The translations under genes were made by a program, and so were the position numbers. Below, piece by piece: positions 1-49,952 of a stretch of DNA of 64,000 bases; the first letter of the stretch is position 1; the number at the start of each line of letters is the position of its first letter. The notes under the pieces were generated by a model that searched no databases, was not told the origin of the DNA, and worked only from the letters and a program-made list of their open reading frames with translations. The DNA is from Escherichia coli (GTDB taxonomy: Bacteria; Pseudomonadota; Gammaproteobacteria; Enterobacterales; Enterobacteriaceae). The stretch lies in NCBI RefSeq assembly GCF_045037415.1, contig NZ_CP173438.1. One strand, 5' to 3'.

Positions 1-59
1 GTGTTGATAAATAACTTAACCGACCTGCTGGTCCGGCTGACCGATCCGAGGTTACGCTG
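1..59 (+). CDS. 3' end of an upstream ABC transporter permease gene (partial, cut by window start)
   Basis: Frame 1 is open from the window edge to TGA at 57-59 (..LINNLTDLLVRLTDPRLR*), directly followed by the next permease ORF. Confidence 0.35.
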
Positions 60-893
60 ATGCCGATGTTTCTCTTTTTACGCCGTTTACGCCATTCACC
101 CGCCGCGTTTTGCGGGTTGATAATTATCCTGTTATTGATGCTAATTGCGCTCTTCGCGCCGTGGCTGGCACCTCACGATCCTAACTGGCAGGATGCGGCG
201 GCGCGATTACAAGCACCGAGTCGTCAGCACTGGCTCGGCACTGACAGTTACGGGCGAGACCTACTTTCACGTTTAATCTACGGCAGCCGCCCGGCACTGG
301 GGCTGGTGGCATTGGTGACAATCATTACACTCCCGGTCGGTCTGCTGATTGGCATTTTAGCCGGGTACTACGGCGGCTGGCTGGAACGCGTGCTGATGCG
401 TTTTACTGACATAGTAATGTCAATGCCGCGTTTAATTCTGGCTTTTGCTTTTGTTGCCATGCTGGGGCCGGGGCTGGTTAACGGCGCACTGGCCCTTGCA
501 TTAACCACCTGGCCTGCTTATGCGCGTCAGGCACGGAGTGAGATCCAACGTCTGCGACACAGTGATTATCTTGCCGCCGCAGAAATGATGGGCATCCGCG
601 GCAGGCGTCTGCTGGCTGGTCATATTTTGCCATTGTGCCTGCCATCTGCCATTGTCCGTCTGGCGCTGGATTTAGCGGGTATCATTCTGGCGGCTGCTGG
701 TCTGGGTTTTCTTGGGCTTGGTGCTCGCCCGCCAATGGCGGAATGGGGAGCCATGATCGCCGACGGTATGCAGGTCATTTTTGATCAATGGTGGATTGCC
801 GCCGCTCCCGGCGCAATTATCTTAATTGCCAGTCTGGCCTTTAATCTGCTGGGTGATGGCTTGCGCGATGTTCTGGAGCCTCAACATGACTGA
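60..893 (+). CDS. ABC transporter permease, peptide/nickel (DppC/NikC-like) family
   Basis: 277-aa hydrophobic ORF with the N-terminal and membrane-segment pattern of DppC/NikC-type permeases; ATGA-overlapped by the next gene. Confidence 0.75.
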   Translation: MPMFLFLRRLRHSPAAFCGLIIILLLMLIALFAPWLAPHDPNWQDAAARLQAPSRQHWLGTDSYGRDLLSRLIYGSRPALGLVALVTIITLPVGLLIGILAGYYGGWLERVLMRFTDIVMSMPRLILAFAFVAMLGPGLVNGALALALTTWPAYARQARSEIQRLRHSDYLAAAEMMGIRGRRLLAGHILPLCLPSAIVRLALDLAGIILAAAGLGFLGLGARPPMAEWGAMIADGMQVIFDQWWIAAAPGAIILIASLAFNLLGDGLRDVLEPQHD

Positions 894-1722
894 CTCACGT
901 CTTAGTATCAACAATCTCTGCGTCGATTATCCGGAGTCCCGGGTCGTCAACAATGTCAGTTTTACATTAGGCAATGAACGTCTGGCGCTGGTCGGTGAGT
1001 CGGGTTCAGGTAAGTCCATGACCGCCCGCGCCCTGATGGGGCTGGTGCGTAAACCGGGTGTAGTAACCGCGGACACACTTAACATTCTGGGGCGTGATGC
1101 ACTCACCCTTAACGCGCGTGGATGGCAACAGTTGCGCGGTAACGATATCGCGATGGTATTGCAAGATCCGCGTTACGCGCTTAATCCAGTAAAGACAGTA
1201 AAAGCGCAACTGGAAGAGGCGCTTACGCTCCATCAACGTCTGAACCGCCGCGAGAAAGAAGAGAAAATAAACACCGCAATTCAGGCTGTCGGCCTCAATA
1301 CGCGAGTACTGCAAAGCTATCCTCGTGAACTTTCTGGCGGCATGGGGCAGCGAGTGATGATTGCAATTGCGCTCATCAACGATCCCCGGGTATTGATTGC
1401 CGATGAGCCAACATCAGCACTAGATGTGCGCCTGCGTAATCAGATTCTGGAACTGCTGGTTACCCAGTGTGAACAACGTCAGATGGCAATGTTGCTGATC
1501 AGTCACGACCTGCCATTAGTTGCCCAATTTTGCCATCGGGTGCTGGTGATGTATCAGGGAAATAAGGTGGATGAAATGCACGCTGCTGCGCTACCTACAG
1601 CAACGCATCCTTACACGCGCACACTGTGGACTTGCCGCCCAAATGCACAAACTTACGGGCAGATGCTGCCGACGCTGGACAGGACGGCAATGACGCCGGA
1701 GAAATACCATGACGATTGTTGA
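886..1722 (+). CDS. ABC transporter ATP-binding protein (DppD/NikD-like)
   Basis: Walker A GESGSGKS, ABC signature LSGG and Walker B LIADEPTSALD in the translation; start chosen at MTDSRL (ATG 886) overlapping the upstream stop. Confidence 0.8.
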   Translation: MTDSRLSINNLCVDYPESRVVNNVSFTLGNERLALVGESGSGKSMTARALMGLVRKPGVVTADTLNILGRDALTLNARGWQQLRGNDIAMVLQDPRYALNPVKTVKAQLEEALTLHQRLNRREKEEKINTAIQAVGLNTRVLQSYPRELSGGMGQRVMIAIALINDPRVLIADEPTSALDVRLRNQILELLVTQCEQRQMAMLLISHDLPLVAQFCHRVLVMYQGNKVDEMHAAALPTATHPYTRTLWTCRPNAQTYGQMLPTLDRTAMTPEKYHDDC

Positions 1723-2413
1723 AATTAATCACTTACAGGTGACTTTTGCTGAGAAAACCGCAGTTTCTGCCGCCAGTTTTTCGGTTAATGCCGGAGAGAC
1801 ATTTAGTTTAATTGGCGAATCAGGCTGCGGAAAATCCACGATTTTGCGCGTAATTGCTGGATTACAGCGCGACTGGCACGGTCAGGTGTCACTGTTTGGG
1901 CACACCATCAAACCAGGAATGCGTTTTCAGGGCGATCTCCGCCGCAATGTGCAAATGGTGTTTCAGGATCCCTATGCCTCGTTGCATCCCAATCATACTC
2001 TGTGGCGAACGCTGGCTGAACCACTCAAAATTCGTGGCGAAAGAGAAATAGAAAAACGCGTCCAGACTGCACTGGAACAGGTTGGCTTGCCTTTCGACGC
2101 CGCTCGTCGCTACCCACACCAGCTTTCCGGTGGTCAACGGCAACGTGTGGTTATTGCTCGCGCCCTGTTGTTACGACCACAACTTCTTCTGCTGGATGAA
2201 CCCACCTCGGCGTTGGATATGTCGGTACAAGCGGAAATCCTTAATTTGTTGAATCAACTTAAGCTGGAACACCAAATGACATATCTGCTGGTCAGTCACG
2301 ATGCCGATGTCATCGCGCATATGTCTGATCGAGCGGCATTGATGTCCGAGGGAAAAATTCAGCGATTTTTTGATCGCGACGCCATGGAAAAGGGGGAACA
2401 TCGGATGGATTAA
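1709..2413 (+). CDS. ABC transporter ATP-binding protein (DppF/NikE-like)
   Basis: Walker A GESGCGKST, signature LSGGQRQR, Walker B LLLDEPTSALD; start overlaps previous gene. Confidence 0.8.
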   Translation: MTIVEINHLQVTFAEKTAVSAASFSVNAGETFSLIGESGCGKSTILRVIAGLQRDWHGQVSLFGHTIKPGMRFQGDLRRNVQMVFQDPYASLHPNHTLWRTLAEPLKIRGEREIEKRVQTALEQVGLPFDAARRYPHQLSGGQRQRVVIARALLLRPQLLLLDEPTSALDMSVQAEILNLLNQLKLEHQMTYLLVSHDADVIAHMSDRAALMSEGKIQRFFDRDAMEKGEHRMD

Positions 2414-2523
2414 AAAACCTGACATTGCATTAATTCATTCTGCTTTCAGGTCTTTTTACAGTTGTTTTTTTGTCCACCCGAACACTTTATACTGTCTCTC
2501 CCCTACCAAACTTCATTATCAAA

Positions 2524-3213
2524 ATGAAAAAAATTATCACTTTGATGTTGTTTTTGACATTCTTTGCCCACGCGAACGACTCCGAGCCTGGCAGCCAGTA
2601 TTTAAAGGCAGCAGAGGCCGGAAACCGACGCGCACAATATTTTCTTGCCGACAGCTGGTTTAGCTCCGGCGATTTGAGCAAAGCCGAATATTGGGCACAG
2701 AAAGCCGCCGACAGCGGTGATGCCGATGCCTGCGCGCTGTTGGCGCAGATCAAAATCACCAATCCGGTCAGTCTGGACTATCCACAAGCAAAAGTGCTTG
2801 CCGAGAAAGCAGCGCAAGCGGGCAGTAAAGAAGGTGAAGTAACGCTGGCGCATATTCTGGTAAATACGCAAGCGGGTAAACCGGATTATCCAAAGGCGAT
2901 TTCGCTGTTAGAAAACGCCTCGGAAGATCTGGAGAACGACTCTGCCGTCGATGCCCAAATGCTGCTTGGTTTGATTTACGCCAACGGCGTGGGCATTAAG
3001 GCCGACGATGACAAAGCAACCTGGTATTTCAAACGTAGCTCTGCGATTTCCCGAACCGGTTATTCCGAATACTGGGCGGGAATGATGTTCTTAAACGGTG
3101 AAGAGGGTTTTATCGAGAAGAATAAACAAAAGGCGCTGCACTGGTTGAATCTGAGCTGTATGGAAGGATTTGATACCGGTTGTGAAGAGTTTGAAAAATT
3201 AACTAACGGTTAA
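2524..3213 (+). CDS. yjcO: Sel1-repeat (TPR-like) periplasmic protein YjcO
   Basis: Signal-peptide start MKKIITLMLFLTFFAHA, then repeated Sel1-type motifs; 229 aa from this ATG, matching recalled YjcO length; convergent with gltP. Confidence 0.8.
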   Translation: MKKIITLMLFLTFFAHANDSEPGSQYLKAAEAGNRRAQYFLADSWFSSGDLSKAEYWAQKAADSGDADACALLAQIKITNPVSLDYPQAKVLAEKAAQAGSKEGEVTLAHILVNTQAGKPDYPKAISLLENASEDLENDSAVDAQMLLGLIYANGVGIKADDDKATWYFKRSSAISRTGYSEYWAGMMFLNGEEGFIEKNKQKALHWLNLSCMEGFDTGCEEFEKLTNG

Positions 3214-3655
3214 GGTAGGCGCAGCAAACGTCGCATCAGGCATTGATGTCGGATGCGGCGTAAACGCCTTATCCGACCTACAAAAATCACGCCAAATCAG
3301 GCTATTGCGCTGTCTGACGTAGGCCTGATAAGACACGTCAGCATCGCATCAGACATTGATGCCGGATGCGGCGTAAACGCCTTATCCGACCTACAAAAAT
3401 CACGCCAAATCAGGCTATTGCGCTGTCTGGCGTAGGCCTGATAAGACGCGGCAAGCGTCGCATCAGGCGTTGATGTCGGATGCGGCGTAAACGCCTTATC
3501 CGACCTACAAAAATCACGCCAAATCAGGCTATTGCGCTGTCTGGCGTAGGCCTGATAAGACGCGTTAAGCGTCGCATCAGGCGTTGATGTCGGATGCGGC
3601 GTAAACGCCTTATCCGACCTACAAAAATCACGCTACATCAGGCTATTACTCAGTC
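3214..3655. repeat. Tandem array of four ~114-bp REP/BIME-type palindromic units
   Basis: Unit beginning gtaggcctgataagacgcg..cgcatcaggc..gatgtcggatgcggcgtaaacgccttatccgacctac recurs at 3319, 3432 and 3546 with few substitutions, after a partial first copy. Confidence 0.85.
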
Positions 3656-3701
3656 AGGCATCCACACATTGCCGGGTGGATATCCCCCCGGCAATCTTCA
3701 A

Positions 3702-5015
3702 TTACTGATCTGCTGTTTTATCAAATTTGCCCAACATTTCACGCTCGTAGGCCAGCGCTTTTTTACGGTCAAATTTGTGTTCCCACTTGGCAATCACCAG
3801 CACCGCCAGCGCATTACCCACCACGTTCAGCGCAGTACGCGCCATATCGAGGATACGGTCAACACCGGCAATAAACGCCAGACCTTCCAGCGGAATACCT
3901 ACGCTACCCAGCGTTGCCAGCAGCACCACAAACGACACGCCCGGCACGCCAGCAATCCCTTTCGAGGTCACCATCAGCGTCAGCACCAGAATGATTTCCT
4001 GCCAGATGGACAGGTCAATGCCATACAGCTGAGCGATGAAAATAGCGGCAATACTTTGATACAGCGTCGAACCATCAAGGTTAAAAGAGTAACCGGTCGG
4101 CACCACGAAACTGGTGATCGACGCCGGTGCACCGTAGGCTTCCATCTTCTCAATAATTCGCGGCAGCACGCTTTCAGAACTGGCAGTAGAGTACGCCAGA
4201 ATCAGCTCATCTTTCAGAATACGAATCAGGATCCAGACACTTAACCCGCACAGGCGCGCCACAATTCCCAGTACGACCAGCGCGAAGAACAGAATGGCGA
4301 AATGCACCAGCAGCACCAGTTTCGCCAGTGGCCACAGAGAAGAGAAACCAAAGTTAGCCACCGTCACCGCAATCAGCGCAAACACACCCACCGGCGCATA
4401 ACGCATCACCATGTGAGTCACTTTAAACATGGTTTCAGAGATGGAGCGGAAAACGGTCACCAGCGGTTCACGATGCGTCGCGGGCAGGGATGAAAGCCCC
4501 AGACCAAACAGCACCGAGAAGAAGATGATCGGCAGCATTTCGCCTTTCGCCATCGACGCCACGATGTTCGTCGGCACCAGCGACAAAATCGTGCCCATAA
4601 TGCCGTGGGAACTGCTTTGTACCGCTTCCGTAGTGCTCTGATATTTCGAGATATCGACGGTCGCCAGCTGCGACATATCCACCCCGGCACCGGGCTGGAA
4701 GACGTTCGCCAGAGTGATCCCCAAAATGATGGCGACGGTGGTGATCACCTCGAAGTAGATAATGGTTTTCGCACCAATACGCCCGAGCTGTTTGGCATCA
4801 CCAACACCCGCGATACCCACCACCAGCGTGGAGATCACAATCGGCACAACAATCATTTTGATCAGATGGATGAAGATATCACCCGCCGGAGAGAGCAAAT
4901 TGACGACCAGCCAGTCGCGGCTGTCGCTATGGTAGTGCAGGTAGCTTCCCAGGAGAATGCCCAGCACCATAGCAAACAGAATCTGCCAGGCCAGGCTGAA
5001 TTTTATATTTTTCAT
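3702..5015 (-). CDS. gltP: Glutamate/aspartate:proton symporter GltP
   Basis: 437-aa ORF starting MKNIKFSLAWQILFAMVLGILLG, a dicarboxylate/amino-acid:cation symporter recognised as GltP. Confidence 0.93.
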   Translation of the reverse strand: MKNIKFSLAWQILFAMVLGILLGSYLHYHSDSRDWLVVNLLSPAGDIFIHLIKMIVVPIVISTLVVGIAGVGDAKQLGRIGAKTIIYFEVITTVAIILGITLANVFQPGAGVDMSQLATVDISKYQSTTEAVQSSSHGIMGTILSLVPTNIVASMAKGEMLPIIFFSVLFGLGLSSLPATHREPLVTVFRSISETMFKVTHMVMRYAPVGVFALIAVTVANFGFSSLWPLAKLVLLVHFAILFFALVVLGIVARLCGLSVWILIRILKDELILAYSTASSESVLPRIIEKMEAYGAPASITSFVVPTGYSFNLDGSTLYQSIAAIFIAQLYGIDLSIWQEIILVLTLMVTSKGIAGVPGVSFVVLLATLGSVGIPLEGLAFIAGVDRILDMARTALNVVGNALAVLVIAKWEHKFDRKKALAYEREMLGKFDKTADQ

Positions 5016-5357
5016 CAGAATAACTTCCTCAATGGAGCGCCGTTCCCCGTTCAGAAACGCGAGAACGTGACATACTGCCAGGGCATGAATTGTGTTGCGT
5101 TGGTTTGTAGATTTTTTTAACGCTTATGATCAGTATCATTTGCGCGGTATGTTGCGCAACCCTTTAACAACAGAGCTTTTCGCTGCATTAATGCATAATA
5201 ACGCGAGTTTATGGCAGGATTAATGAATAACCATTTGTTATAGAAGGATTTTTATTTGTTTAATCTGCAATAATACTGATTAGTGATTATTTTTGATTAT
5301 ATGTTCATTCGATTATTTTTTATGCAGCTCAATAACATAATCTTCATCACCAGATGA

Positions 5358-5954
5358 TTAATCTGATCTCCGCTGCAACAATTTCGCCATATTAATCGAC
5401 TCGACCAGCTGTGTCCGGTTGATCCGGGGTGAGTTGAGATCCATCACTTTTTGCCATAGTTCGATGGCTTGCGCGTAATTCGCCTGCATAAACGCATCGG
5501 AAGCCAGCAGCATCAGAGCGGTGATTTCGTTAGAGTCCAGCGCGAGGGCTTTGTCGATCATTGCGCGAGCCTGGACGGTCATATGTTGGCTGGCCTGGTA
5601 ATACAGCACCGTCGCCAGCGCCGCATACAGTTCAGCGTTCTCACCACGTAGTTGCAACGCCTGACGGTACGCCAGCAGCGAATTGCTGTAATCGTTTTGC
5701 CACAGATAATACTCGCCCAGTAACGCCCACTGTTCGCTGTTTTGTGGATTAGCACGGATTTTATCCTGCAATGCCTGAAGCTGCGCTTCCGGGGTTTGCT
5801 GGCTGGCAAACTGATGCAGCGGATCGCGCTGACGCTGATACTCCGCACGTACCGCCTGCCATTTTGGACTTAACAGATAACTGCCGACACAGAGAAATAC
5901 CATCAAAATCGTGAGTGTTGTCAGCATTTTCACCGGTATTTGGGGCTGTTTCAT
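5358..5954 (-). CDS. nrfG: Formate-dependent nitrite reductase complex subunit NrfG (TPR protein)
   Basis: Start set at [11 protein letters not shown] (198 aa); TPR-like content; last gene of the nrf operon; 4-bp overlap with nrfF. Confidence 0.85.
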
Positions 5955-6334
5955 CGCTTCGCCCTCACTCGCCAGAGGATCAGTGCCATCAGCAGTAACA
6001 ACACTACTGGCAGCGCCCACAACACCAGAGTCTGACCCGTTAACGGTGGGTTATAGCGAACAAAATCTCCGTAGCGTTCGGTCATCCAGCCAATGATTTC
6101 GACTTCACTTTTCCCCTCTTCCACCATGGTGTAAACCTGATGGCGCATACTGACTGCCACCGGCGCATTGGATTCCAGTAAGTTCTGATTCTGGCACTGC
6201 GGACAACGTAACTGGCTGGCAATATTTAACGCCTGTTCCTGTTGTTGCGGATTAGCGAATTGCCAGGTGTCTACAACCTGAGCGCGCGCAAAACAGGTAA
6301 ATAACAGCAGTAGCGTGAGAAGCCCTTTATTCAT
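5951..6334 (-). CDS. nrfF: Cytochrome c-type biogenesis protein NrfF (CcmH-like)
   Basis: 127-aa ORF with signal peptide and LRCPQCQNQ motif typical of CcmH/NrfF. Confidence 0.85.
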
Positions 6335-8009
6335 CGCGCTTCCTTCCCCGCCATCCGCTTAACAATGCGCCCGCAATCATCAACAATCCTCCCCCCCAGA
6401 TCCAGCGCACACCGCTTTGTACATACAAACGAAATGCGTAACGATCCGCTCCGGTTTTCTCTCCCATGACCGCATACCAGTCATGGATGCCGTTCCAGCG
6501 AATCGAGGGTTCCATCATTTGCTGACGGCGTGCTTCGTAAAAACGCCGCTCCGGCGTTAATTCACCAATGCGTTGCTGATGGTCAAACAGTGCCACTATC
6601 GCTTTTTCGCTGGTGTAATTGCCTTTGGCTTGCAGATCGAGGCGCTCAAAACGGAAGGTGTATCCTGCCAGCGTCACCTGCTGACCCGGCTGTAAATTCA
6701 GGCTGATCTCCTGACGGCTGACGCTGGAAACCACGATCCCCGCGGCAAATAACAGCACGCCCGCATGCGCCAGCAGCGTCGGAAGCCGCGCGCGTTTGCC
6801 AGAGACAAACGTCGCCAGCACAATCACCACCAGCATCAACAGAGCAAACGGTAACGTCGCGCGGTTAAAATACGGCGCGCCAACGGAGAGGCGTCCCCAG
6901 CCCAGCAGGCCGTAAATCATCGGATAAAGCGTTCCCACCAGCACGATCAGTAGCACTGCGCAAAACAGCAACAGCGTAGCGAGGATTAACATTTCCCGCG
7001 ATAACCCCGAAAAACGCACCGCCGGGCCACCGTCCCGCGCTCGCCAGCCATACAGAGCCAGAGACGCAAGGCTAATCAGTACAAACAGGCCGAACAACGG
7101 CACGGCGCGGACGTTATCCAGCGCGAACGCATGAACCGAAACCAGAATGCCAGAACGGACAATCAACGTGCCCAGCAGCGACAGCATCAGAGTAACTATC
7201 GTCAGCAACAGCGACCAGTGGCGGAAAATCCCCCGCTGGCGTGTCAGGGATAAACTGTGCAGCAGCGCTGTGGCAGAAAGCCAGGGTAGTAAAGAGGCGT
7301 TTTCCACCGGATCCCAGAACCACCAGCCGCCCCAGCCCAGTTCGCAATAGGCCCACCAGGAACCGAGGATGATCCCCGCTGTTAATGCGCTCCAGCCAGG
7401 TAGTGCCCAACGCCAGCAAATTCGGGCGCAGGTACCATCAAACTCGCCGCGCAGTAAACTCGCCAGCGCCACGCTCGCCGCCACCATCAAACCGCCGTAG
7501 CCGAGATAAAGCAGCGGTGGATGAAAGATAAGACCGGGATGTTGCAGCATCGGATTGAGATCGCGGCCTTCGATTGCTGGTGGAAATATCCGCACGAAGG
7601 GATCGGACCACAGCACCACAAACAGTAGCAGTGCGGCGAGCATGAGAGATAAAACGGCTAGCGTCAGCGGAAATAGCGGATCGGTTTGCTGCCGGTAATG
7701 CCAGGCAAACAGCGCGCTCCAGGCGGAAAGCAGCAGCACCCAAAGCAACAGCGAACCTTCATGACCGCCCCACACCGCCGCCAGTTTGAGTTCCCACGAC
7801 AGCAGGCTATAGCTATGTTGGGCGACATAAATAACCGAGAAATCGCTGATGAGAAAACAATACGTCAGTACGCCAAAGGCGAGCAGCAGGAGCGCGAACT
7901 GCGCCAGAATGCCGATGCAAGTGAGTCGCATCATGGCAGGCCAGCGCAACCGCACTCCCGCGAAGGCCGTCAACGGGATCAACACGTTGACCCCGAGACT
8001 TAACAACAA
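6327..8009 (-). CDS. nrfE: Haem lyase NrfE (CcmF-like)
   Basis: Large polytopic membrane ORF with CcmF-like WGGWWFWDPVENASLLPWL motif; exact start uncertain. Confidence 0.85.
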   Translation of the reverse strand: MLLSLGVNVLIPLTAFAGVRLRWPAMMRLTCIGILAQFALLLLAFGVLTYCFLISDFSVIYVAQHSYSLLSWELKLAAVWGGHEGSLLLWVLLLSAWSALFAWHYRQQTDPLFPLTLAVLSLMLAALLLFVVLWSDPFVRIFPPAIEGRDLNPMLQHPGLIFHPPLLYLGYGGLMVAASVALASLLRGEFDGTCARICWRWALPGWSALTAGIILGSWWAYCELGWGGWWFWDPVENASLLPWLSATALLHSLSLTRQRGIFRHWSLLLTIVTLMLSLLGTLIVRSGILVSVHAFALDNVRAVPLFGLFVLISLASLALYGWRARDGGPAVRFSGLSREMLILATLLLFCAVLLIVLVGTLYPMIYGLLGWGRLSVGAPYFNRATLPFALLMLVVIVLATFVSGKRARLPTLLAHAGVLLFAAGIVVSSVSRQEISLNLQPGQQVTLAGYTFRFERLDLQAKGNYTSEKAIVALFDHQQRIGELTPERRFYEARRQQMMEPSIRWNGIHDWYAVMGEKTGADRYAFRLYVQSGVRWIWGGGLLMIAGALLSGWRGRKRDE

Positions 8010-16292: not shown

Positions 16293-16982
16293 TCAGAACA
16301 TCATCCTGGCCACCAGCGGCGAAACCAATACCATCAATACACCTGAAAGCATCATGACCAGGCTTGCAACTACGCCTTCTTGTTGACCCAGTTCATACGA
16401 CCGCGCAGTCCCGGCACCATGAGATGCCGCGCCGAATCCAGCACCTTTCGCCATCCCTTCGCGAATAGAGAGACGTAAAAACAACACGTCGCCAATCGCC
16501 ATGCCAAACACACCGGTGACCACCACAAACAGCGCCACCAGATCAGGCTGTCCGCCGAGCGACTGGCTCGCTGCCAAAGCAAATGGCGTAGTGACCGAAC
16601 GCACCGCCAGGCTACGCTGGATCTCATCTGGCAGGGTAAACAATCGCGCCAGCCACACTGAGCTGGTCACTGCCACCACCGTTGCCGTCAGTACGCCTGC
16701 CGTCAACGACATCCAGTGACGCTTAATGATCGCCCGATTGTCATACACTGGTACCGCAAAGGCGATGGTGGCCGGACCTAATAGCCATAGTAACCAGTGC
16801 GCTTCGCCAATATAGTTTTGCCAGGAAATATTGCCAAAAACCAGCAGCATAACCAGTAGCGTAGGCGTCAGCACCAGAGGCATCAATGGCAATTTACGAA
16901 AGCGGCGATAAAGGCGTTTGTTAAGAAAATAGATAACTAGCGTAATTGCCAGACAGAGCATACTTAGCTGAAAATTAGCCAC
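16293..16982 (-). CDS. LrgB/CidB-family membrane protein
   Basis: 229-aa polytopic ORF with LrgB-like composition; 8-bp overlap with the upstream LrgA-like gene. Confidence 0.75.
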   Translation of the reverse strand: MANFQLSMLCLAITLVIYFLNKRLYRRFRKLPLMPLVLTPTLLVMLLVFGNISWQNYIGEAHWLLWLLGPATIAFAVPVYDNRAIIKRHWMSLTAGVLTATVVAVTSSVWLARLFTLPDEIQRSLAVRSVTTPFALAASQSLGGQPDLVALFVVVTGVFGMAIGDVLFLRLSIREGMAKGAGFGAASHGAGTARSYELGQQEGVVASLVMMLSGVLMVLVSPLVARMMF

Positions 16983-17385
16983 GGTTTAACCTGCGCATTT
17001 CATAGCGATAGACTTTTTCCACTACCCAGGCAGTCGTGCCCAGCACCATCACCGTACTCAGCGCGATCACAGCAAAAATACGCCAGCCATCCACCAGTAA
17101 TAGTTGTGCATAGTTCACCACAGCCACCACGGCAGGGACAAAAAACAGCAACATTTCGGCCAATAGCCAACGCGCCCCGGCTCGAACCCATTGCAGAGGA
17201 AGAATGCGACAAACAATCAGCGCCAGCATCAGGATCATCCCCACCAGGTTGGCAGGCAGCGGCAAATGCAGCCAGGAGACGAGATACTGCGCAAAAATAA
17301 ATAAACCTGCATACAGCACAACCTGAAAAAATACCTGGATAGATTGCACTACGGCAGGGGTAATGCGGCGAAGCGCCACGGGCAT
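16975..17385 (-). CDS. LrgA/CidA-family holin-like membrane protein
   Basis: 136-aa four-TM ORF, the usual size and partner arrangement of LrgA/CidA. Confidence 0.75.
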   Translation of the reverse strand: MPVALRRITPAVVQSIQVFFQVVLYAGLFIFAQYLVSWLHLPLPANLVGMILMLALIVCRILPLQWVRAGARWLLAEMLLFFVPAVVAVVNYAQLLLVDGWRIFAVIALSTVMVLGTTAWVVEKVYRYEMRRLNRG

Positions 17386-17488
17386 GAGAGGATATCCTGA
17401 AAATAAAACAGAATGGTAAGTATAGAGAGCGCTCGCCCCTGACTGAAATGAATTAAAATCATTGCAGGTATAGTCAAAGGGAATAGTT

Positions 17489-18373
17489 ATGGATATCAGA
17501 ACGCTGCGTTATTTTGTCGAAGTCGTGCGCCAGCAAAGCTTCACCCGCGCAGCGGAGAAGTTGTTTGTCACCCAACCAACTATCAGCAAGATGCTGAAGA
17601 ATCTCGAAGATGAGCTGAACTGTATATTGTTGATCCGCGATGGTCGTCGGCTGCTTCTCACTGATACTGGTCGCGTCGTATTTGAGCGCGGGCTGGCTTT
17701 ACTGGCTGAGTTTCGGCAACTGGAAGCTGAGCTTAGCGATATCAATCAGCTTAAAACCGGCGTTTTGCGGCTGGGAATCCCGCCGATGGTTGGGATGTTG
17801 ATGGCCGGGCCGATTGGCCTTTTTCGCCAGCGTTACCCCGGCGTAGAATTGAAAATTTCGGAGTTTGGTGGTCTGACGGTACAACAAGCGGTGATGAACG
17901 GTGAACTGGATATGGCACTGACAGCCCTGCCAGTAGAAGAAAGCGGCCTGACAACGTTATCGCTGTTTAGTCATCCACTATGTGTACTGACGCCACATTC
18001 AGGTAAATGGCTTGAATGTGATGCCGTCTCACCGGAGACATTGGCGGAACATCCTCTACTTATCTATAACGAAGATTTTGCCTTAAGTAAGCAATTGATG
18101 AAGTTATTCGATGAACATGGCGTTAAGCCGAGAATTGCAGTTCGCAGCGGGCAATGGGATTTTCTCGCCGCGATGGTTCAGGCCGGTGTCGGAATAGCCA
18201 TATTGCCGGAACCCATTTGCCAGCGATTAGATAAAAACACCTTAAAATGGCTACCGCTGGAAAGCGAACTAAGCTGGAAATTAGGAATGATTTGGCGTGA
18301 GGGCGTTTACCTTTCCCACTCTGCCCACGCGTGGCTGAGCTGTTGTGAAGGATACTGGTTAACGCCAGAGTAA
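17489..18373 (+). CDS. LysR-family transcriptional regulator
   Basis: N-terminal HTH MDIRTLRYFVEVVRQQSFTRAAEKLFVTQPTISKMLKNLEDEL; 294 aa; divergent from the lrgAB-like pair. Confidence 0.88.
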   Translation: MDIRTLRYFVEVVRQQSFTRAAEKLFVTQPTISKMLKNLEDELNCILLIRDGRRLLLTDTGRVVFERGLALLAEFRQLEAELSDINQLKTGVLRLGIPPMVGMLMAGPIGLFRQRYPGVELKISEFGGLTVQQAVMNGELDMALTALPVEESGLTTLSLFSHPLCVLTPHSGKWLECDAVSPETLAEHPLLIYNEDFALSKQLMKLFDEHGVKPRIAVRSGQWDFLAAMVQAGVGIAILPEPICQRLDKNTLKWLPLESELSWKLGMIWREGVYLSHSAHAWLSCCEGYWLTPE

Positions 18374-18408
18374 GTCGGGTTGGCGGGCTCGCCCGCCAAC
18401 CATGCAGA

Positions 18409-20058
18409 TTACTGATTTTCCTCAATCAGCAACGCTTCAAGCAAATCGAGATCGTGCAGTAATTTTTGCAGCGTTTCGTTACTGATCTCCCGCGTGGCGC
18501 GCAGGTGGTACAGTTCAGCACGTTCAGAACGCAATGCCGCCAGACGGAAGCGACGCTCCAGGTTCTCTTCCAGGATTGAACTTTCTACATCATTACGTCC
18601 ATCGGCGCGACGACGCAGGTTACCAATGACGCGAGAACTAACCTCTGTGAGCAGCTGGTTATCGATATTCTCTTCGGTATCCGCCGCCAAACGCTCCTCC
18701 ATTTTCTGGATCGCCACAATCGCCACTTCTGCCGTTGCCGCTCGTGCAATACGTTCCTCTTTCAATTGTTGCGAATGGTCCGCGACTTCTATGTGTTGTA
18801 GCAGAATAGGCAACATCACCACGCCGACAAACAACGAGAAGAGAATGACGCCAGCCGCCAGGAACACCAACTCATAGCGCGCAGGGAAGACGTTACCATC
18901 CGGCAAGAGAAGCGGGATAGAGAGCACACCGGCCAGAGTGATCGCCCCACGCACCCCGGCGAAAGACGCGATCAGGATTTCTCGTGTAGTCCACGAACCA
19001 AACTCCATCGGCTTCTTCTTCAGGAAGCGGTTGCTGAACTTTTTCATCGTCCACAGCCAGCCGAAACGGACCAGCATCAGCGCCGCATATATCAGAATAA
19101 TATCGGTAAACAGCATCCAGATTTCGACGTTAGGATCGATTTCTGCCGCCATCAGCGACGTCTCCAGAATCCCCGGCAACTGCAGACCTAACAGCAGGAA
19201 CACCATGCCGTTAAAGACAAATTCCAGCATCGCCCAGGTGCTGTTTGCGCGCAGGCGCATTGCCAGCGGCGCACGGCGCATCACACCGGAGCGGGTGATG
19301 GTCATCCCGGCGGCAACCGCAGCGAGGATGCCGGAAACGCCAATATGTTCCGCAATCAGATAAGAAGCGAATGGCAGCAAGAACAGCAGAACGATCTGCG
19401 TCGCGGGTTCATCACCGCCCCAGCGGCTGAGGAATCGCAGCGAGCGACCATACAGCCAGCTCACCACAAAACCGGCGAGAATACCGCCTATTGCCACTTT
19501 CATAAATTCGACCGTCGCACCGCCGACGGTGAAGATCATTGTCCCCATCGCCACTGCCACGGCAAACTTCAACGACACCAGGCCGGAGGCGTCATTCATC
19601 AACGCTTCGCCCTGCAAAATGCCCATGATTTTTTTCGGGATGCGCCCCTCGCCAACAATCCCGGAGAGCGCTACAGCATCGGTCGGAGAAAGCACCGCAG
19701 CCAGCGCAAAGGCGGGGATCAGCGGAATGCCCGGCACCACCCAGTAAATAAGGAAGCCAATGCCGACCACGGTGACCACCACCAGCGCCAGCGCGAGGCC
19801 GAAAATCTCTCGCCCATGTTCGAGAAATTCACGGGTCGGCGTTTTCCAACCATCAGCGAACAGCAACGGCGGGATAAACAAGACTAAAAAGAGTTCAGGA
19901 TCAAACTCCACATGCAAACCAAACGTCGGCCACGCCAGTAGCGCACCGATGGCGATTTGCATAAGCGGAAGCGGGATCTGAAAGGGCATGACACGAGTGA
20001 CCACCCCGGACAGCGAGACCACGAGGGTCATTATCAGTATGGTGAAGAAGATTTCCAT
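18409..20058 (-). CDS. yjcE: Na+/H+ exchanger family (CPA1) membrane protein YjcE
   Basis: 549-aa polytopic ORF with hydrophilic C-terminal tail; position between actP region and ghxP. Confidence 0.82.
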   Translation of the reverse strand: MEIFFTILIMTLVVSLSGVVTRVMPFQIPLPLMQIAIGALLAWPTFGLHVEFDPELFLVLFIPPLLFADGWKTPTREFLEHGREIFGLALALVVVTVVGIGFLIYWVVPGIPLIPAFALAAVLSPTDAVALSGIVGEGRIPKKIMGILQGEALMNDASGLVSLKFAVAVAMGTMIFTVGGATVEFMKVAIGGILAGFVVSWLYGRSLRFLSRWGGDEPATQIVLLFLLPFASYLIAEHIGVSGILAAVAAGMTITRSGVMRRAPLAMRLRANSTWAMLEFVFNGMVFLLLGLQLPGILETSLMAAEIDPNVEIWMLFTDIILIYAALMLVRFGWLWTMKKFSNRFLKKKPMEFGSWTTREILIASFAGVRGAITLAGVLSIPLLLPDGNVFPARYELVFLAAGVILFSLFVGVVMLPILLQHIEVADHSQQLKEERIARAATAEVAIVAIQKMEERLAADTEENIDNQLLTEVSSRVIGNLRRRADGRNDVESSILEENLERRFRLAALRSERAELYHLRATREISNETLQKLLHDLDLLEALLIEENQ

Positions 20059-25376: not shown

Positions 25377-25913
25377 TCAGAACGGAATATCGTCATCAAA
25401 GTCCATCGGCGGCTCGTTAGACGGCGCTGCCGGAGCGGACTGCTGCGGGCGAGACTGCGCGCCGCCGCTGAACTGATTGCCACCCTGCGGCTGCTGAGGC
25501 TGACCCCAACCGCCCTGCGGCTGACCACCACCGATATTGCCACCTGCAGGAGCGCCACCACCCTGACGACCACCCAGCATCTGCATGGTGCCGCCAACGT
25601 TCACCACGACTTCTGTGGTATAGCGATCCTGACCGGATTGATCGGTCCATTTGCGGGTACGCAGCTGACCTTCGATATAAACCTGAGAACCTTTACGCAG
25701 ATATTCGCTGGCTACTTCTGCCAGTTTGCCGAACAGCACAACGCGGTGCCATTCAGTCTGCTCTTTCATCTCGCCGGTGGCTTTATCACGCCAGGATTCG
25801 GAAGTAGCCAGCGTAATGTTGGCAACTGCGCCACCATTTGGCATGTAGCGTACTTCCGGGTCCTGACCCAGATTACCAACGAGAATAACCTTGTTTACGC
25901 CTCTGCTGGCCAT
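25377..25913 (-). CDS. ssb: Single-stranded DNA-binding protein
   Basis: 178-aa [47 protein letters not shown] with Gly/Gln-rich tail ending DFDDDIPF. Confidence 0.97.
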
Positions 25914-30721: not shown

Positions 30722-30901
30722 TTATCTGCGGATTTGTCACATAAAAAGAGCATGATCACATTTGGAATACCTGTGCGATAAACCACACATTGCCACGGTT
30801 ATTCTGCTTACACATTCACACAATGGCACTCTTTTGGTTCTCGCAAACATTGTTCAGGGAATATACTGATGATAAATATAAATGCATTCAATGGATGATG
30901 A

Positions 30902-32722
30902 ATGAAAATATCGTGGAATTATATATTTAAGAACAAATGGCGATTTCACATTACAAGCATTTCACTTTTTCTTATCATGCTCGCGGTTTCAATCGCTTTT
31001 TTGCACTTGCGTTTTAATACCTTGTCCGGTACCGATAAAATGCGGCTTGAAATGTATAAGTCCACATTATATTCCACCATCGAGCAATTTTATGTTTTAC
31101 CCTATATGCTCTCAACAGACCATATCATCCGTCAGGCGGTAATTACGCCTGACGATATGACGTCCAGCGAACTCAATCAACGAATTGCACATTTCAATAC
31201 TCAACTCAAAACCGCAGCAATATTTATTCTGGATACCCAAGGTAAGGCCATCGCTTCTAGTAACTGGCAGGACCCCGGCAGCTATGTAGGGCAAAATTAT
31301 AGCTATCGCCCCTATTATAAACACGCCATGTCTGGCTTAAATGGACGCTTTTACGGTATTGGTAGCACTACGAATACACCGGGATTCTTCCTCTCTACAA
31401 GTATAAAAGATAAAGGAAAAATTGTCGGTGTTGTAGTAGTAAAAATAAGTCTTAATGAAATTGAAAAAGCATGGGCCGAAGGTCCTGAAAATATTATCGT
31501 GAATGATGAACATGGGATTATATTTTTAAGTTCAAAATCGCCATGGCGAATGCGAACACTGCAACCGTTACCTGTTCAGGCAAAACAAAAACTACAATCT
31601 ACCCGCCAATATAGTCTCGACAATCTTTTACCGGCGGATTATTATCCCTGTTATACCGTGAGCAATTTTACTTTCCTGAAAGATAAAAAAGAACAACTCT
31701 GTTTATTCCCGCAATATTATACGCAACAAATAGCCATTCCAGAATTTAACTGGAAAATGACAATTATGGTCCCCTTAGATAACCTGTACTGGTCATGGGC
31801 TATTTCGTTAGTCATTACACTAATTATTTACCTGCTGTTTTTGTTATTTATTAAATACTGGAGAATGCGATCTCATGCACAACAATTATTAACACTGGCG
31901 AATGAAACATTAGAAAAACAGGTTAAAGAGCGTACATCTGCCCTGGAATTGATCAATCAAAAATTAATACAGGAGATAAAAGAGCGCAGTCAGGCTGAAC
32001 AAGTATTACAAATTACGCGTAGTGAACTGGCAGAGTCCAGCAAACTGGCGGCGCTTGGACAGATGGCAACCGAAATTGCCCATGAACAAAATCAACCGTT
32101 AGCCGCCATTCACGCACTTACTGATAACGCGCGTACTATGCTAAAAAAAGAGATGTATCCACAGGTTGAACAGAATCTGAAACACATTATTTCCGTGATT
32201 GAGCGGATGACGCAGCTCATTTCCGAACTTAAAGCATTTGCCTCGCGCCATCGCGTACCTAAAGGTTCTGCCGATGTCATCAAAGTGATGTATAGCGCCG
32301 TGGCGTTACTTAATCACAGCATGGAGAAAAATAACATTGAGCGACGAATAAAAGCCCCATCCATGCCGTTATTTGTCAATTGCGATGAACTCGGTCTTGA
32401 ACAGATATTCAGTAATTTAATTAGCAACGCCTTAGATTCTATGGAAGGTAGCTCTTACAAACGACTGGATATCGCCATTCGCCAGGCAAATAACAAAGTT
32501 ATTATTACCATTAAAGACAGCGGTGGCGGTTTTGCACCTGAAGTTGTCGATCGCATATTTGAACCATTTTTTACCACTAAACGTAGAGGAATGGGGTTGG
32601 GACTGGCAATAGTCAGCGAAATTGTCCGAAATTCGAACGGCGCACTCCACGCCAGTAATCATCCTGAAGGCGGCGCAGTAATGACATTAACCTGGCCTGA
32701 ATGGGGAGAAAAACATGAATAA
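30902..32722 (+). CDS. kguS: Sensor histidine kinase, likely KguS of the alpha-ketoglutarate island
   Basis: 606-aa ORF with N-terminal TM, periplasmic domain, second TM, and HisKA/HATPase region (ATEIAHEQNQPLAAI H-box, DSGGGF, GMGLGLA). Confidence 0.7.
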   Translation: MKISWNYIFKNKWRFHITSISLFLIMLAVSIAFLHLRFNTLSGTDKMRLEMYKSTLYSTIEQFYVLPYMLSTDHIIRQAVITPDDMTSSELNQRIAHFNTQLKTAAIFILDTQGKAIASSNWQDPGSYVGQNYSYRPYYKHAMSGLNGRFYGIGSTTNTPGFFLSTSIKDKGKIVGVVVVKISLNEIEKAWAEGPENIIVNDEHGIIFLSSKSPWRMRTLQPLPVQAKQKLQSTRQYSLDNLLPADYYPCYTVSNFTFLKDKKEQLCLFPQYYTQQIAIPEFNWKMTIMVPLDNLYWSWAISLVITLIIYLLFLLFIKYWRMRSHAQQLLTLANETLEKQVKERTSALELINQKLIQEIKERSQAEQVLQITRSELAESSKLAALGQMATEIAHEQNQPLAAIHALTDNARTMLKKEMYPQVEQNLKHIISVIERMTQLISELKAFASRHRVPKGSADVIKVMYSAVALLNHSMEKNNIERRIKAPSMPLFVNCDELGLEQIFSNLISNALDSMEGSSYKRLDIAIRQANNKVIITIKDSGGGFAPEVVDRIFEPFFTTKRRGMGLGLAIVSEIVRNSNGALHASNHPEGGAVMTLTWPEWGEKHE

Positions 32723-34073
32723 TAAATTCAGTGAAATTACTATAGTTTATATTGAGGATAGTGACGATGTACGTTTTGCCTGTGAACAAACGCTCACGCT
32801 GGCTGGTTATCGCGTTATTTCCTGTTGCGATGCAGAACACAGTATTCCCCTTATTCAAAGTCAGGCCAACATTATTATACTGACCGATGTCAGGTTACCT
32901 GGAATATCAGGACTAGAGCTCCTCAGTTACATCAACGAAATGGATAGCAAAATTCCGGTTATTTTAATTACCGGACACGGTGACGTGGAAATGGCGGTGG
33001 ATGCCATGCGTAATGGTGCATTCGATTTCATTGAGAAACCAAGTAGCTCAGATAAATTATTGAGTATTATTGCCAGAGCGGTAGAAAAACGGCGATTGGT
33101 TTTAGAAAATCAGCAATTACTGGCGAATCTGCAACAGGAAAATGGCCCGGTGCTGATTGGTCGTAGTCCGCAGATGCAGCAACTGCGTAAAATGATCCTT
33201 AATGTCGCAGATACCGGTGCCGATGTCCTTATTTATGGTGAAACAGGTTGTGGTAAAGAAGTCGTCGCCAGAATGCTGCATCACTGGAGTACCCGCCGTC
33301 AGGGGCAGTTTGTTGCCTTAAACTGTGCAGGCTTACCAGAAACGTTGTTTGAAAGCGAAATATTTGGTCATGAGGCGGGCGCATTTACCGGTGCGGTTAA
33401 AAAGCGTATTGGAAAAATTGAACATGCAAATGGTGGTACGTTATTTCTCGATGAAATAGAGGGAATGCCATCAGGAATGCAGGTAAAACTGCTACGTGTA
33501 TTGCAGGAAAGAACCATTGAACGATTAGGTGCCAATCAATTAATTCCGGTGAATTGCCGTGTTATTGCAGCGACCAAGGAAGATTTACTGCGTCGCAGCG
33601 AAGAACATCTGTTTCGTCTCGATCTCTATTATCGTCTGAATGTGGTTAGCCTGAATATTCCACCTCTACGCCAGCGACGAGAAGATATCCCTGAACTGTT
33701 TTACTGGTTCGCCAGTCAGGCGGCACAAAAATATAATCGTCCTCTGCCTGATATTTCTCCCATGTTACTGGCCTGGTTGCAGTCACAAAGTTGGCCTGGC
33801 AATGTACGTGAACTTAAACACAATGCAGAGCGTTTTGTTCTCGGTTTACTGACCCACCACCAGCCAGTGCCAATGACTCAGCAAGAAGAGAGTGGTCTTA
33901 CCGCCTGCATTGATGCTTTCGAGAAAAAGTTAATCGAAGATATGCTGCGACAAACGGAAGGCCAGGTCAGTTTGACAGCGCGGCTATTACAGCTGCCGCG
34001 CAAGACTTTATATGACAAACTCAACAAACATCAGATTCAACCGCAAGTTTATCGACCAGAATCATCCAGCTAA
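32715..34073 (+). CDS. kguR: Sigma-54-dependent response regulator (NtrC family), likely KguR
   Basis: Receiver domain, AAA+ sigma-54 activation domain (GETGCGKE Walker A, GAFTGA motif in EAGAFTGAVKK), C-terminal HTH; 8-bp overlap with kinase gene. Confidence 0.8.
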   Translation: MNNKFSEITIVYIEDSDDVRFACEQTLTLAGYRVISCCDAEHSIPLIQSQANIIILTDVRLPGISGLELLSYINEMDSKIPVILITGHGDVEMAVDAMRNGAFDFIEKPSSSDKLLSIIARAVEKRRLVLENQQLLANLQQENGPVLIGRSPQMQQLRKMILNVADTGADVLIYGETGCGKEVVARMLHHWSTRRQGQFVALNCAGLPETLFESEIFGHEAGAFTGAVKKRIGKIEHANGGTLFLDEIEGMPSGMQVKLLRVLQERTIERLGANQLIPVNCRVIAATKEDLLRRSEEHLFRLDLYYRLNVVSLNIPPLRQRREDIPELFYWFASQAAQKYNRPLPDISPMLLAWLQSQSWPGNVRELKHNAERFVLGLLTHHQPVPMTQQEESGLTACIDAFEKKLIEDMLRQTEGQVSLTARLLQLPRKTLYDKLNKHQIQPQVYRPESSS

Positions 34074-35135: not shown

Positions 35136-35146
35136 CGTTGGTTTCC

Positions 35147-36646: not shown

Positions 36647-36686
36647 ATTCACCTCATTGTGAAAAATAAAAAACCTGCCTGGCTAT

Positions 36687-36702
36687 TGCAGGAGCTATGC
36701 CA
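36687..36702 (-). promoter_or_regulatory. Candidate sigma-54 (-24/-12) promoter for the transporter/Ldh_2 unit
   Basis: Minus strand reads TGGCAT-AGCTC-CTGCA (GG-N10-GC spacing) ~40 bp upstream of the permease start. Confidence 0.45.
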
Positions 36703-36815
36703 TCTTTAATTTTTTAATAATGCTTTGTTATTTAATGATTTTATTATTTATTCTTTTTATTTTGTGCGCGGTTTTCCGCACAGTAAATAAAAGGTGATTC
36801 TCTTACCACACAGAT

Positions 36816-36839
36816 AAAAAAAGGGAGCGATATGCTCCC
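36816..36839 (-). terminator. Rho-independent terminator downstream of the sucD-like gene
   Basis: Minus strand: hairpin gggagc-atatc-gctccc followed by an 8-T run. Confidence 0.6.
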
Positions 36840-36857
36840 TTGATATTCATTTATGGA

Positions 36858-37730: not shown

Positions 37731-37742
37731 CTTAACCTCCTG

Positions 37743-38912: not shown

Positions 38913-38933
38913 ATATTCCCTCAGTGGTGTGTG

Positions 38934-40352: not shown

Positions 40353-40363
40353 CGGCGCCCTCC

Positions 40364-41518: not shown

Positions 41519-41550
41519 AAAATGTTCTCCTTATTATTTTTGTGCGCCTT

Positions 41551-44295: not shown

Positions 44296-44330
44296 GTTTT
44301 TCTCCTGATGGTCATAGACAGCTGCATTAC

Positions 44331-44346
44331 TGCACAATCCGTACCA
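44331..44346 (-). promoter_or_regulatory. Candidate sigma-54 (-24/-12) promoter for the 2-oxoglutarate dehydrogenase / succinyl-CoA synthetase operon
   Basis: Minus strand reads TGGTAC-GGATT-GTGCA with GG-N10-GC spacing, ~36 bp upstream of the proposed E1 start. Confidence 0.45.
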
Positions 44347-44476
44347 ACAGTTAAAAACACTAATTTTCAAAAACTTATAGAAAAGAGATGATGTAAAAGT
44401 GGGCGAAAAAAGGGACAAAATAGTAGGGAGTGGCTGGAGTCAGGAACAGGCGGAGAGATCCGCCTGTTGATTAAAA

Positions 44477-45670: not shown

Positions 45671-45751
45671 GCGATGGTTCTCCAGGTTTACGGGCAGGTG
45701 GTTAAACCACAATAAACCGGAAGAAGGCGAAGATCGAGAGGATGTTCAAAG

Positions 45752-47310: not shown

Positions 47311-47332
47311 TGTCCCTCCCTGGAGACGAATA

Positions 47333-49880: not shown

Positions 49881-49952
49881 AACGAATGGTGTTACCTGCT
49901 GTTGAATGGGGGACAAGAGAGTATAGCGAGAAACAGTTTCTCGCTACAGCAT

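Follow-up and report, generated by a model that had tools for sequence, protein, structure and literature searches.

A PepT-family ABC importer operon in the fdhF-yjcO interval of Escherichia coli is probably an old allele that was lost from K-12

Escherichia coli K-12 has seven importers of the PepT family. The described systems closest to the operon reported here are NikABCDE and DppABCDF of E. coli, GsiABCD with the binding proteins GbpA and HbpA, and the cluster C binding proteins for opines and small signals together with the staphylopine importer CntABCDF. NikABCDE consists of five genes in the same order as the present operon, its ATPases are likewise short and lack the oligo_HPY domain, the present proteins have the nikA, nikC, nikD and nikE models among their best matches, and NikA is a structural neighbour of the present substrate-binding protein (SBP). 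However, the scores are far below the Nik cut-offs, no NikR operator is found here, and the SBP is nearer to DppA by sequence. DppA (8z1y, 1dpe; E about 1e-27) is the closest solved SBP by sequence, has the same fold, and shares with the present SBP the Asp residue that binds the amino group of the ligand, but the identity is about 22%, the equivalent of Arg355 is deleted, and the ATPases encoded here lack the C-terminal domain. GsiB (YliB, 1uqw) and GbpA (3m8u) are top structural matches of the SBP with TM-scores of 0.78-0.88, and its score against the GsiB model is about equal to those against nikA and dppA. It nevertheless falls below the GsiB cut-off, and GsiA is a fused double ATPase, whereas two separate short ATPases are encoded here. 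Among the cluster C proteins, AapF (7kz8) is the top Foldseek match, MoaA, AgaA and CntA are also listed, and scores are good against the models of the Cnt permeases and ATPases, but the identity to MoaA, AgaA, AapF and the Cnt system is just 19-23%.

The distal part of the operon lies at the left end of the window, which is the whole stretch of 64,000 nucleotides of E. coli DNA (NZ_CP173438.1) analysed. The features of this region, and those of the upstream part as they occur in the complete genome NZ_AP022032.1 (locus L001), are as follows.

Window 1..60, plus strand: 3' end of permease 1 (last 19 codons and stop), DppB/NikB-like by NCBIfam and Pfam on the full-length L001 protein
Window 60..893, plus strand: permease 2, 277 aa, OppC_N and BPD_transp_1 domains, DppC/NikC/DdpC-like
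Window 886..1722, plus strand: ATPase 1, 278 aa, NikD/DppD-like, Pfam ABC_tran
Window 1709..2413, plus strand: ATPase 2, 234 aa, NikE/DppF-like, Pfam ABC_tran
Window 2414..2449, no strand: last 36 bp of the segment missing in K-12 (right end of the indel), from the junction comparison of B2, E. albertii, K-12 and IAI39
Window 2450..2523, no strand: spacer homologous to the K-12 fdhF-yjcO intergenic region, from the junction comparison
Window 2524..3213, plus strand: yjcO, Sel1-repeat protein, conserved right-hand flank outside the transporter (ORF position, annotation and Pfam)
Window 3702-5015, minus strand: gltP, from the ORF list
L001 14821-16968, outside the window: fdhF, intact, directly upstream of the operon
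L001 17343-18911, outside the window: SBP gene
L001 19011-20060, mostly upstream of the window: permease 1, full length, 349 aa (Pfam BPD_transp_1_N and BPD_transp_1)

Over its first 6 kb the window matches many complete E. coli chromosomes at 100% identity, and these are annotated likewise. The near-identical genome NZ_AP022032.1, which differs from the window elsewhere in that its Avs4 island is missing in the window, contains the full operon in the order SBP, permease, permease, ATPase and ATPase, within the gene order mdtP-fdhF-[five genes]-yjcO-gltP. The first-pass annotation recognized the distal part of a five-gene Dpp/Nik/opine-type importer directly upstream of yjcO and placed the binding-protein gene outside the window. 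Both points are confirmed by the positions and Pfam domains of the ORFs, by the complete operon and by its matches to PepT models; the upstream extension that it proposed for recovery of the SBP gene was made on NZ_AP022032.1, where the gene is found. It also took the operon to occupy the position of fdhF. This is an effect of the window edge, because intact fdhF adjoins the operon upstream, about 3 kb beyond the left edge as judged from the near-identical genome.

The five-gene unit is clearly, by its sequence, a type I ABC importer of the PepT (peptide/opine/nickel) family, TC 3.A.1.5. It encodes a family-5 (cluster C) SBP, which scores 233 bits against SBP_bac_5 of Pfam (cut-off 32), two unlike permeases of the DppB/OppB and DppC/OppC types, and two ATPases; the permeases and ATPases match the Nik, Dpp, Opp and Cnt models with E values of 1e-60 to 1e-83. 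The genes overlap one another: the ATG of permease 2 lies within the stop codon of permease 1 (TGATG, overlap of 1 nt), the start of ATPase 1 overlaps the end of permease 2 by 8 nt, and the start of ATPase 2 overlaps the end of ATPase 1 by 14 nt. Every catalytic motif is intact in ATPase 1 (Walker A GESGSGKS, signature LSGGM, Walker B VLIADE, H-loop ISHD) and in ATPase 2 (GESGCGKS, LSGGQ, LLLLDE and VSHD), and neither ATPase has a Pfam match to the C-terminal oligo_HPY domain (PF08352). Family membership and these motifs suggest that the SBP, exported by the Sec pathway, would capture a small ligand in the periplasm, that the loaded SBP would dock on the heterodimer of the two permeases, and that a heterodimer of the two short ATPases would power import by ATP hydrolysis.

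None of the five proteins reaches the cut-off of a named family (NCBIfam equivalog). The SBP scores 110 bits against nikA, its top match (cut-off 393), 106 against DppA (1005), 107 against GsiB (594) and 49 against OppA (947). Permease 2 matches Opp2C best, with 279.5 bits (cut-off 300), followed by DdpC with 278.9 bits (434), and the remaining Nik models score 203 (nikB, cut-off 447), 276 (nikC, 358), 209 (nikD, 319) and 191 bits (nikE, 333). The operon is thus not assigned to NikABCDE, because the cut-offs of nikA to nikE are all missed, nor to the Dpp/Opp subgroup, because the ATPases lack oligo_HPY and the DppA and OppA scores are below the cut-offs. In databases its proteins are named just 'ABC transporter substrate-binding protein' or 'peptide/nickel transport system'. 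The operon is an ordinary accessory transporter, routinely annotated 'ABC transporter', and no published work on it is found in literature searches. One paper in which yjcO is often mentioned concerns an unrelated deletion in a long-term evolution experiment.

In K-12 MG1655, fdhF is followed by 93 bp and then yjcO, and the operon is missing, as the first-pass annotation had supposed; the two states differ by a clean indel of 5.48 kb (L001 16974-22449). The operon is carried by 1043 of 5426 complete E. coli genomes and the K-12-type empty junction by 4375, so that the two alleles together account for 5418. The copies are at least 99% identical among the 1043 carriers, one E. albertii-like record excepted. 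The E. coli carriers form one tight clade, in which the named strains all belong to phylogroup B2, and the E. albertii type strain has the operon at the same site with the same boundaries. The term 'strain-specific' used in the first-pass annotation is therefore too narrow. The empty allele also occurs in IAI39, a strain that established typing assigns to phylogroup F, which is usually placed near B2. In IAI39 fdhF and yjcO are nearer to K-12 and the outer genes nearer to B2, so that recombination has moved one allele or the other. One match is recorded as a plasmid but holds the same chromosomal neighbours; it is a piece of chromosome under a plasmid label and is rejected as evidence of plasmid carriage.

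The fdhF-yjcO interval has two old alleles, and the operon is one of them rather than a recent island. Its dS between E. coli and E. albertii is 0.25-0.45, compared with 0.18-0.74 for flanking core genes, its G+C content is 50-57%, like the backbone and flanks, no integrase, transposase or tRNA gene is found at the locus, and no direct repeats are found at the indel junctions. The only feature of the segment at 2414..2449 is a weak inverted repeat, CCTGA...TCAGG. Because of the synteny with E. albertii, the matching dS and the lack of an integrase, tRNA, repeat or G+C deviation, the full allele is most likely ancestral and the K-12 state a deletion; the word 'insertion' used earlier probably gives the wrong direction, although the direction rests on one outgroup. 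In a scan of one genome per species, E. albertii is the only Escherichia record returned, and no copy turned up for the genomes that stand for E. coli and the other Escherichia species in that scan. On this result vertical descent would need several losses. The terminator of fdhF in the full allele lies inside the left end of the segment (L001 17021-17050), and would be lost with it in a 5.48-kb deletion that gives the empty allele. At window position 2462 a single T is present, and its K-12 counterpart is a 15-bp palindromic segment (CCTCCTTTCGGAGGC), which forms the hairpin of the K-12 fdhF terminator. Of the junctions compared (B2, E. albertii, K-12 and IAI39), only those of K-12 and IAI39 have this hairpin. 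The palindromic segment would thus supply a new fdhF terminator at the scar after the deletion.

That the operon is instead a recently acquired, strain-specific genomic island between fdhF and yjcO is suggested by its absence from K-12 and the other genomes with the empty junction, and by the positions of its orthologues, which in Klebsiella, Raoultella, Kosakonia and Yokenella adjoin bet or ent genes and in Proteus are flanked by oppA and marC. These differing sites across Enterobacterales indicate that the module moved during enterobacterial evolution. However, the presence in 1043 genomes, the identical location in E. albertii, boundaries included, with a dS like that of the flanks, the lack of mobility genes and junction repeats, the normal G+C content, the clade-wide rather than patchy spread and the chromosomal nature of the 'plasmid' copy largely refute a recent acquisition, which is very unlikely. 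Slightly less probable still is that the operon is a remnant in decay that no longer has a function in E. coli. A RimL-like GNAT acetyltransferase (Acetyltransf_3), which is paired with the operon in 10 of 14 other genera, is missing in Escherichia, where tblastn finds no remnant of it; a TTATGC-N7-GCATAA palindrome and a TTGACT element, which other genera share in the promoter, are not kept in Escherichia; and disrupted copies occur occasionally, with one IS1 insertion and a frameshift of ATPase 2 in 14EC007. Yet all five genes have dN/dS values of 0.03-0.11 between E. coli and E. albertii, indicating at the sequence level that the operon is under strongly purifying selection, the catalytic motifs are all intact, and of 60 carrier records sampled all but two show five intact genes in their annotation. 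The best explanation as a whole, to which we give a probability of about 0.7, is that the operon is an intact and selectively maintained PepT importer, an old allele of the fdhF-yjcO interval that is ancestral and was lost in K-12.

The substrate of this importer is most likely a small compound that resembles a peptide or derives from an amino acid and carries a free amino group; a chelated metal is the main alternative. The AlphaFold model of the SBP (mean pLDDT 94.4) matches the folds of DppA, GsiB and NikA with TM-scores of 0.7-0.9, and the nearest solved folds bind HEHEAA, glutathione, dipeptides, opines and Ni-His. These solved relatives are 16-23% identical to the SBP and their ligands are chemically unlike each other, so that no substrate is singled out by the Foldseek neighbours, which are equally distant. 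That the importer simply duplicates Dpp and Opp as a permease for dipeptides or oligopeptides is possible, if doubtful: the closest solved SBP relatives by sequence are DppA proteins, some databases label the orthologues 'dipeptide-binding protein', and Asp422 of the SBP, kept in 51 of 65 homologues, aligns with Asp408 of mature DppA, which binds the peptide alpha-amino group. However, the DppA equivalog score is about a tenth of its cut-off, the position of DppA Arg355, which holds the carboxylate, falls in a deletion of the SBP in the alignment, the ATPases lack the domain that is present in the Opp ATPases beside the Proteus copy, and the pairing with the RimL-like GNAT is unusual for a nutritional peptide permease. 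Somewhat more doubtful is a second nickel, cobalt or metallophore importer of the Nik or Cnt type, which would take up a chelated metal. Short ATPases without oligo_HPY resemble NikD and NikE rather than DppD and DppF, nikA is the top NCBIfam match of the SBP, permease 2 almost reaches the cut-off of the nickel permease model Opp2C, and the structural neighbours of the SBP include NikA, NikZ and CntA. Against this, the SBP scores equally with GsiB, DppA and NikA (about 107-110 bits) and far below the nikA cut-off, it is much nearer to DppA (E 3e-27) than to NikA (E 5e-14) by sequence, and it keeps the Asp residue by which the amino group of a peptide is bound. Moreover, matches to the NikR operator (GTATGA-N16-TCATAC) upstream occur with 3 mismatches only and at chance level (15 found, 13.75 expected), and no Fur box is found within 3 mismatches.

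The substrate is not identified from structure prediction, neighbouring genes or operator searches. No opine catabolic or biosynthetic genes are found near the operon in any genus examined, the RimL-like GNAT is the one neighbour that recurs, with uncharacterised structural-genomics proteins as its closest solved relatives, and more distant homologue loci have just an OsmC protein and an aminotransferase as neighbours. No clear sigma-70 promoter is found upstream of the operon and no Rfam element in its leader. A repeat of the form ATGAGAATT-N10-AATTCTCAT is a candidate target of a regulator.

The 'missing fdhF' is thus the window edge. If the preferred reading of the operon as an old allele is true, the 'insertion' amounts to a long-standing presence/absence polymorphism with K-12 as the deletion, and the K-12 allele would be a case in which a terminator was rebuilt at a deletion scar by insertion of a 15-bp palindrome. 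It is an unlikely, though conceivable, extension of this reading that the importer takes up a specific small molecule derived from the host or microbiota, and that its retention in B2 and E. albertii, together with its loss elsewhere, adds to their distinct niche or extra-intestinal fitness. Its ligand could then be, for example, a modified peptide or an opine-like compound. It could also be a toxic analogue of a peptide, a possibility raised by the RimL-like acetyltransferase beside the operon in other genera. The operon would make an eighth PepT-family importer, beyond the seven of K-12, and within E. coli it is confined to the clade from which most extra-intestinal pathogens come (ST131, ST95, ST73 and ST1193), so that its substrate could bear on that lifestyle.

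The first 2413 nucleotides of the window contain the distal part of a five-gene ABC importer operon. The features of this region are as follows.

Window 1–60, 3' end of the permease 1 gene (last 19 codons and stop), from ORF listing and translation
Window 60–893, permease 2, 277 aa, from ORF listing and translation; Pfam OppC_N and BPD_transp_1
Window 886–1722, ATPase 1, 278 aa, from ORF listing and translation; Pfam ABC_tran
Window 1709–2413, ATPase 2, 234 aa, from ORF listing and translation; Pfam ABC_tran
Window 2450–2475, site of a single T in place of the K-12 segment CCTCCTTTCGGAGGC, compared with 7170–7215 of the K-12 MG1655 locus (L002), from junction comparison
Window 2524–3213, yjcO, directly after the operon
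Window 3702–5015, gltP, on the strand opposite to the operon

The operon genes in the window are joined by a TGATG overlap, then an 8-nt and then a 14-nt overlap, and both translated ATPases retain the Walker A, LSGG, Walker B and H-loop motifs. This result agrees with the first-pass annotation, which placed a partial permease, a permease and two overlapping ATPases upstream of yjcO. Many complete E. coli chromosomes match the first 6 kb of the window with 100% identity. At L001, a locus of the complete E. coli genome NZ_AP022032.1, the genes are arranged in the order mdtNOP, fdhF, the gene for the substrate-binding protein (SBP), permease 1, permease 2, ATPase 1, ATPase 2, yjcO, gltP and nrfG-A, and the full-length SBP and permease 1 consist of 522 and 349 aa respectively. 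The presence of the whole operon at this locus confirms the prediction of a five-gene importer with its SBP outside the window. The operon had also been thought to stand in place of fdhF. However, fdhF is intact in L001, with 374 bp between its end and the SBP start codon; it lies some 3 kb outside the left edge of the window and is therefore not displaced by the operon. In K-12 MG1655, yjcO is flanked by fdhF across a gap of 93 bp without the operon, as had been expected.

Base-by-base comparison of the junctions locates the indel at L001 16974–22449 (5476 bp missing from K-12), with its left boundary five bases past the fdhF stop codon and its right boundary at window 2449. Just to the right of the indel, a 15-bp palindromic segment of K-12, CCTCCTTTCGGAGGC, corresponds to a single T in the window and in Escherichia albertii. 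This segment is the stem of the K-12 fdhF terminator and lies exactly beside the junction. The fdhF terminator of operon-bearing genomes is a different hairpin, located inside the left end of the 5476-bp segment (L001 17021–17050). The CCTCCTTTCGGAGGC hairpin may be a terminator rebuilt after deletion of the original.

By sequence, all five proteins clearly belong to the peptide/opine/nickel ABC importer family, and the system would work like NikABCDE, DppABCDF and GsiABCD of the same superfamily. It does not pass the membership tests for any of these named families, and none of the five proteins reaches the curated cut-offs of named NCBIfam families; the SBP scores about 107–110 bits against nikA, gsiB and dppA alike, for which the NCBIfam cut-offs are 393 to 1005. 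Databases offer generic names only, and no publications on the operon were found. The operon is an uncharacterised importer of a well-known type, without anything unusual in its anatomy.

The solved sequences closest to the SBP are DppA proteins (E about 1e-27, ~22% identity). The AlphaFold model of the SBP, built from 65 homologues, is confident (mean pLDDT 94.4), and its Foldseek neighbours, all 16–23% identical, bind very diverse ligands (HEHEAA, glutathione, dipeptides, murein tripeptide, opines and nickel-histidine). Asp422 of the SBP, conserved in 51 of the 65 homologues, is the counterpart of DppA Asp408, the residue that binds the amino group of the ligand. The counterpart of DppA Arg355 is deleted. 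The oligo_HPY C-terminal domain was not found by Pfam in either ATPase, and in this they resemble NikD/NikE, not DppD/DppF. These three features narrow the substrate field only slightly. Judging from the sequence and the model, the substrate may well be a small peptide-like or amino-acid-derived compound, which is favoured over a chelated metal because the operon searches detected neither a NikR operator nor a Fur box, and no Rfam element was found in the operon leader. A chelated metal is a rather unlikely substrate.

The operon is widespread elsewhere in Enterobacterales, at chromosomal sites that differ among genera, with SBP identities of 72–87% in the Klebsiella oxytoca group, Raoultella, Kosakonia, Yokenella, Buttiauxella, Kluyvera, Serratia, Yersinia mollaretii and Proteus. 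A full five-gene operon adjoins the opp operon in Proteus (L025 8001–13049). In Serratia (L023/L024 8001–9569), an SBP orthologue (76% identical) is an orphan gene without neighbouring permease or ATPase genes, and sits between two OTCase-family genes, read as argI and pyrB, followed by pyrI. The region 5' of the SBP gene in other genera contains a conserved TTATGC-N7-GCATAA palindrome, a TTGACT element and a GGCCTAACGTAGC block. A RimL-like GNAT acetyltransferase gene adjoins the operon in 10 of the 14 loci of these genera; in most it is divergent and lies 5' of the SBP gene, and in two, L010 and L016, it closely follows the ATPase genes. In Escherichia this gene is missing, with no remnant found at the operon, and the leader, about 105 bases longer than in other genera, is without the palindrome and the TTGACT element. 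Escherichia has apparently lost all three. The Escherichia leader has its own perfect 9-bp inverted repeat, ATGAGAATT-N10-AATTCTCAT (L001 17141–17168), identical in E. albertii. A strong hairpin is located between the SBP and permease 1 genes (L001 18959–18983); such a hairpin in ABC operons may allow the binding protein to be expressed more strongly than the membrane components.

The 5.48-kb segment is present in 1043 of 5426 complete E. coli genomes, in a single copy each, and all copies are at least 99% identical, except one at 91.4%. The K-12-type empty junction is present in 4375 genomes, and the two alleles together account for 5418 of the 5426. Named carriers include O25b:H4-ST131, ST1193, S88, ATCC 25922 and an O18:H1 strain, all of phylogroup B2 by established typing; K-12, W, O157:H7 and O111:H8 are among the named strains without it. 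Diversity among carriers is very low, compared with a difference of 1.6–4% between the flanking genes of the window strain and K-12, which also argues for a single carrier clade. The copy at 91.4% belongs to strain 14EC007 (NZ_CP024131.1, filed as E. coli), which is probably a mislabelled E. albertii, as the proteins of this region match those of E. albertii almost exactly; its ATPase 2 is annotated as frameshifted. Two segment matches are on records labelled plasmid. The copy examined holds mdtNOP-fdhF-operon-yjcO-gltP-nrf and is therefore a chromosomal segment, giving no evidence of mobility. The yjcO-gltP spacer, 489 bp in the window versus 148 bp in S88, contains four tandem REP-type elements matching Rfam naRNA4 (RF02564; window 3214–3619), three of them above the gathering score. 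Window 1–6000 is covered to at least 80% in only 741 genomes, versus 1043 operon carriers, because this REP array is variable.

Between actP and yjcE, where the pentapeptide-repeat gene yjcF is found in K-12, window 16294–18409 contains a LysR-family regulator gene and divergent CidA/LrgA-like and LrgB-like genes. The aphA-tyrB interval contains a 13.7-kb segment (window 30763–44479) that is missing in K-12. Its products include a sensor kinase, a sigma-54-dependent regulator, an Ldh-family oxidoreductase and a DASS symporter, and it has a further copy each of sucCD, lpdA, odhB and the 2-oxoglutarate dehydrogenase E1 gene; in a 99.996%-identical reference, this lpdA carries a frameshift annotation. 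This segment presumably resembles the KguS/KguR alpha-ketoglutarate utilisation island of uropathogenic E. coli CFT073. Also missing in K-12 are an AAA ATPase gene and pnuC in the tyrB-alr interval (window 45748–47332), and ~7 kb in the dnaB-qorA interval (window 49896–57046) whose first genes encode a LacI-family regulator and an acyl-CoA:acetate CoA-transferase. NZ_AP022032.1, otherwise near-identical to the window, has a ~12-kb defence island between yjcB and ssb (L027 421–11854) with AbiGi, Avs4, two hypothetical genes and two integrases; the window is without it at the corresponding site (~25379–25385).

The E. albertii type strain has the operon at the same fdhF-yjcO site with identical boundaries. 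It was detected in a one-genome-per-species scan, in which E. albertii is the only Escherichia record returned; the representative genomes of E. coli and of the other Escherichia species gave no copy. Between a window-type strain and E. albertii, dS is 0.25–0.45 for the five operon genes, and 0.18 for fdhF, 0.30 for yjcO, 0.33 for gltP, 0.51 for nrfG and 0.74 for mdtP. This match indicates that the operon is as old at this site as its neighbours. Its dN/dS values of 0.03–0.11 in the E. coli–E. albertii comparison show purifying selection. The G+C content of the operon is 50–57%, as in the backbone, and no mobility genes, tRNA genes or flanking repeats were found at the operon in L001 or by junction comparison. 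By established typing, IAI39 belongs to phylogroup F; its junction is of the empty K-12 type and includes the CCTCCTTTCGGAGGC hairpin. Its fdhF and yjcO are 98.8% and 98.4% identical to those of K-12, versus 97.95% and 97.1% to those of the window strain, whereas its outer genes mdtO, nrfF and nrfG are closer to the window strain than to K-12. This disagreement suggests that the fdhF-yjcO alleles behave as old haplotypes that recombination moved between lineages. By outgroup comparison, the operon-bearing state would be ancestral and the K-12 state derived, with a probability limited to roughly 60% because there is a single outgroup, the scan returned no other Escherichia copies and IAI39 shows this pattern. 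The operon was initially regarded as a likely strain-specific insertion, which does not hold; it is a clade-level allele shared with E. albertii, and was probably lost by K-12.
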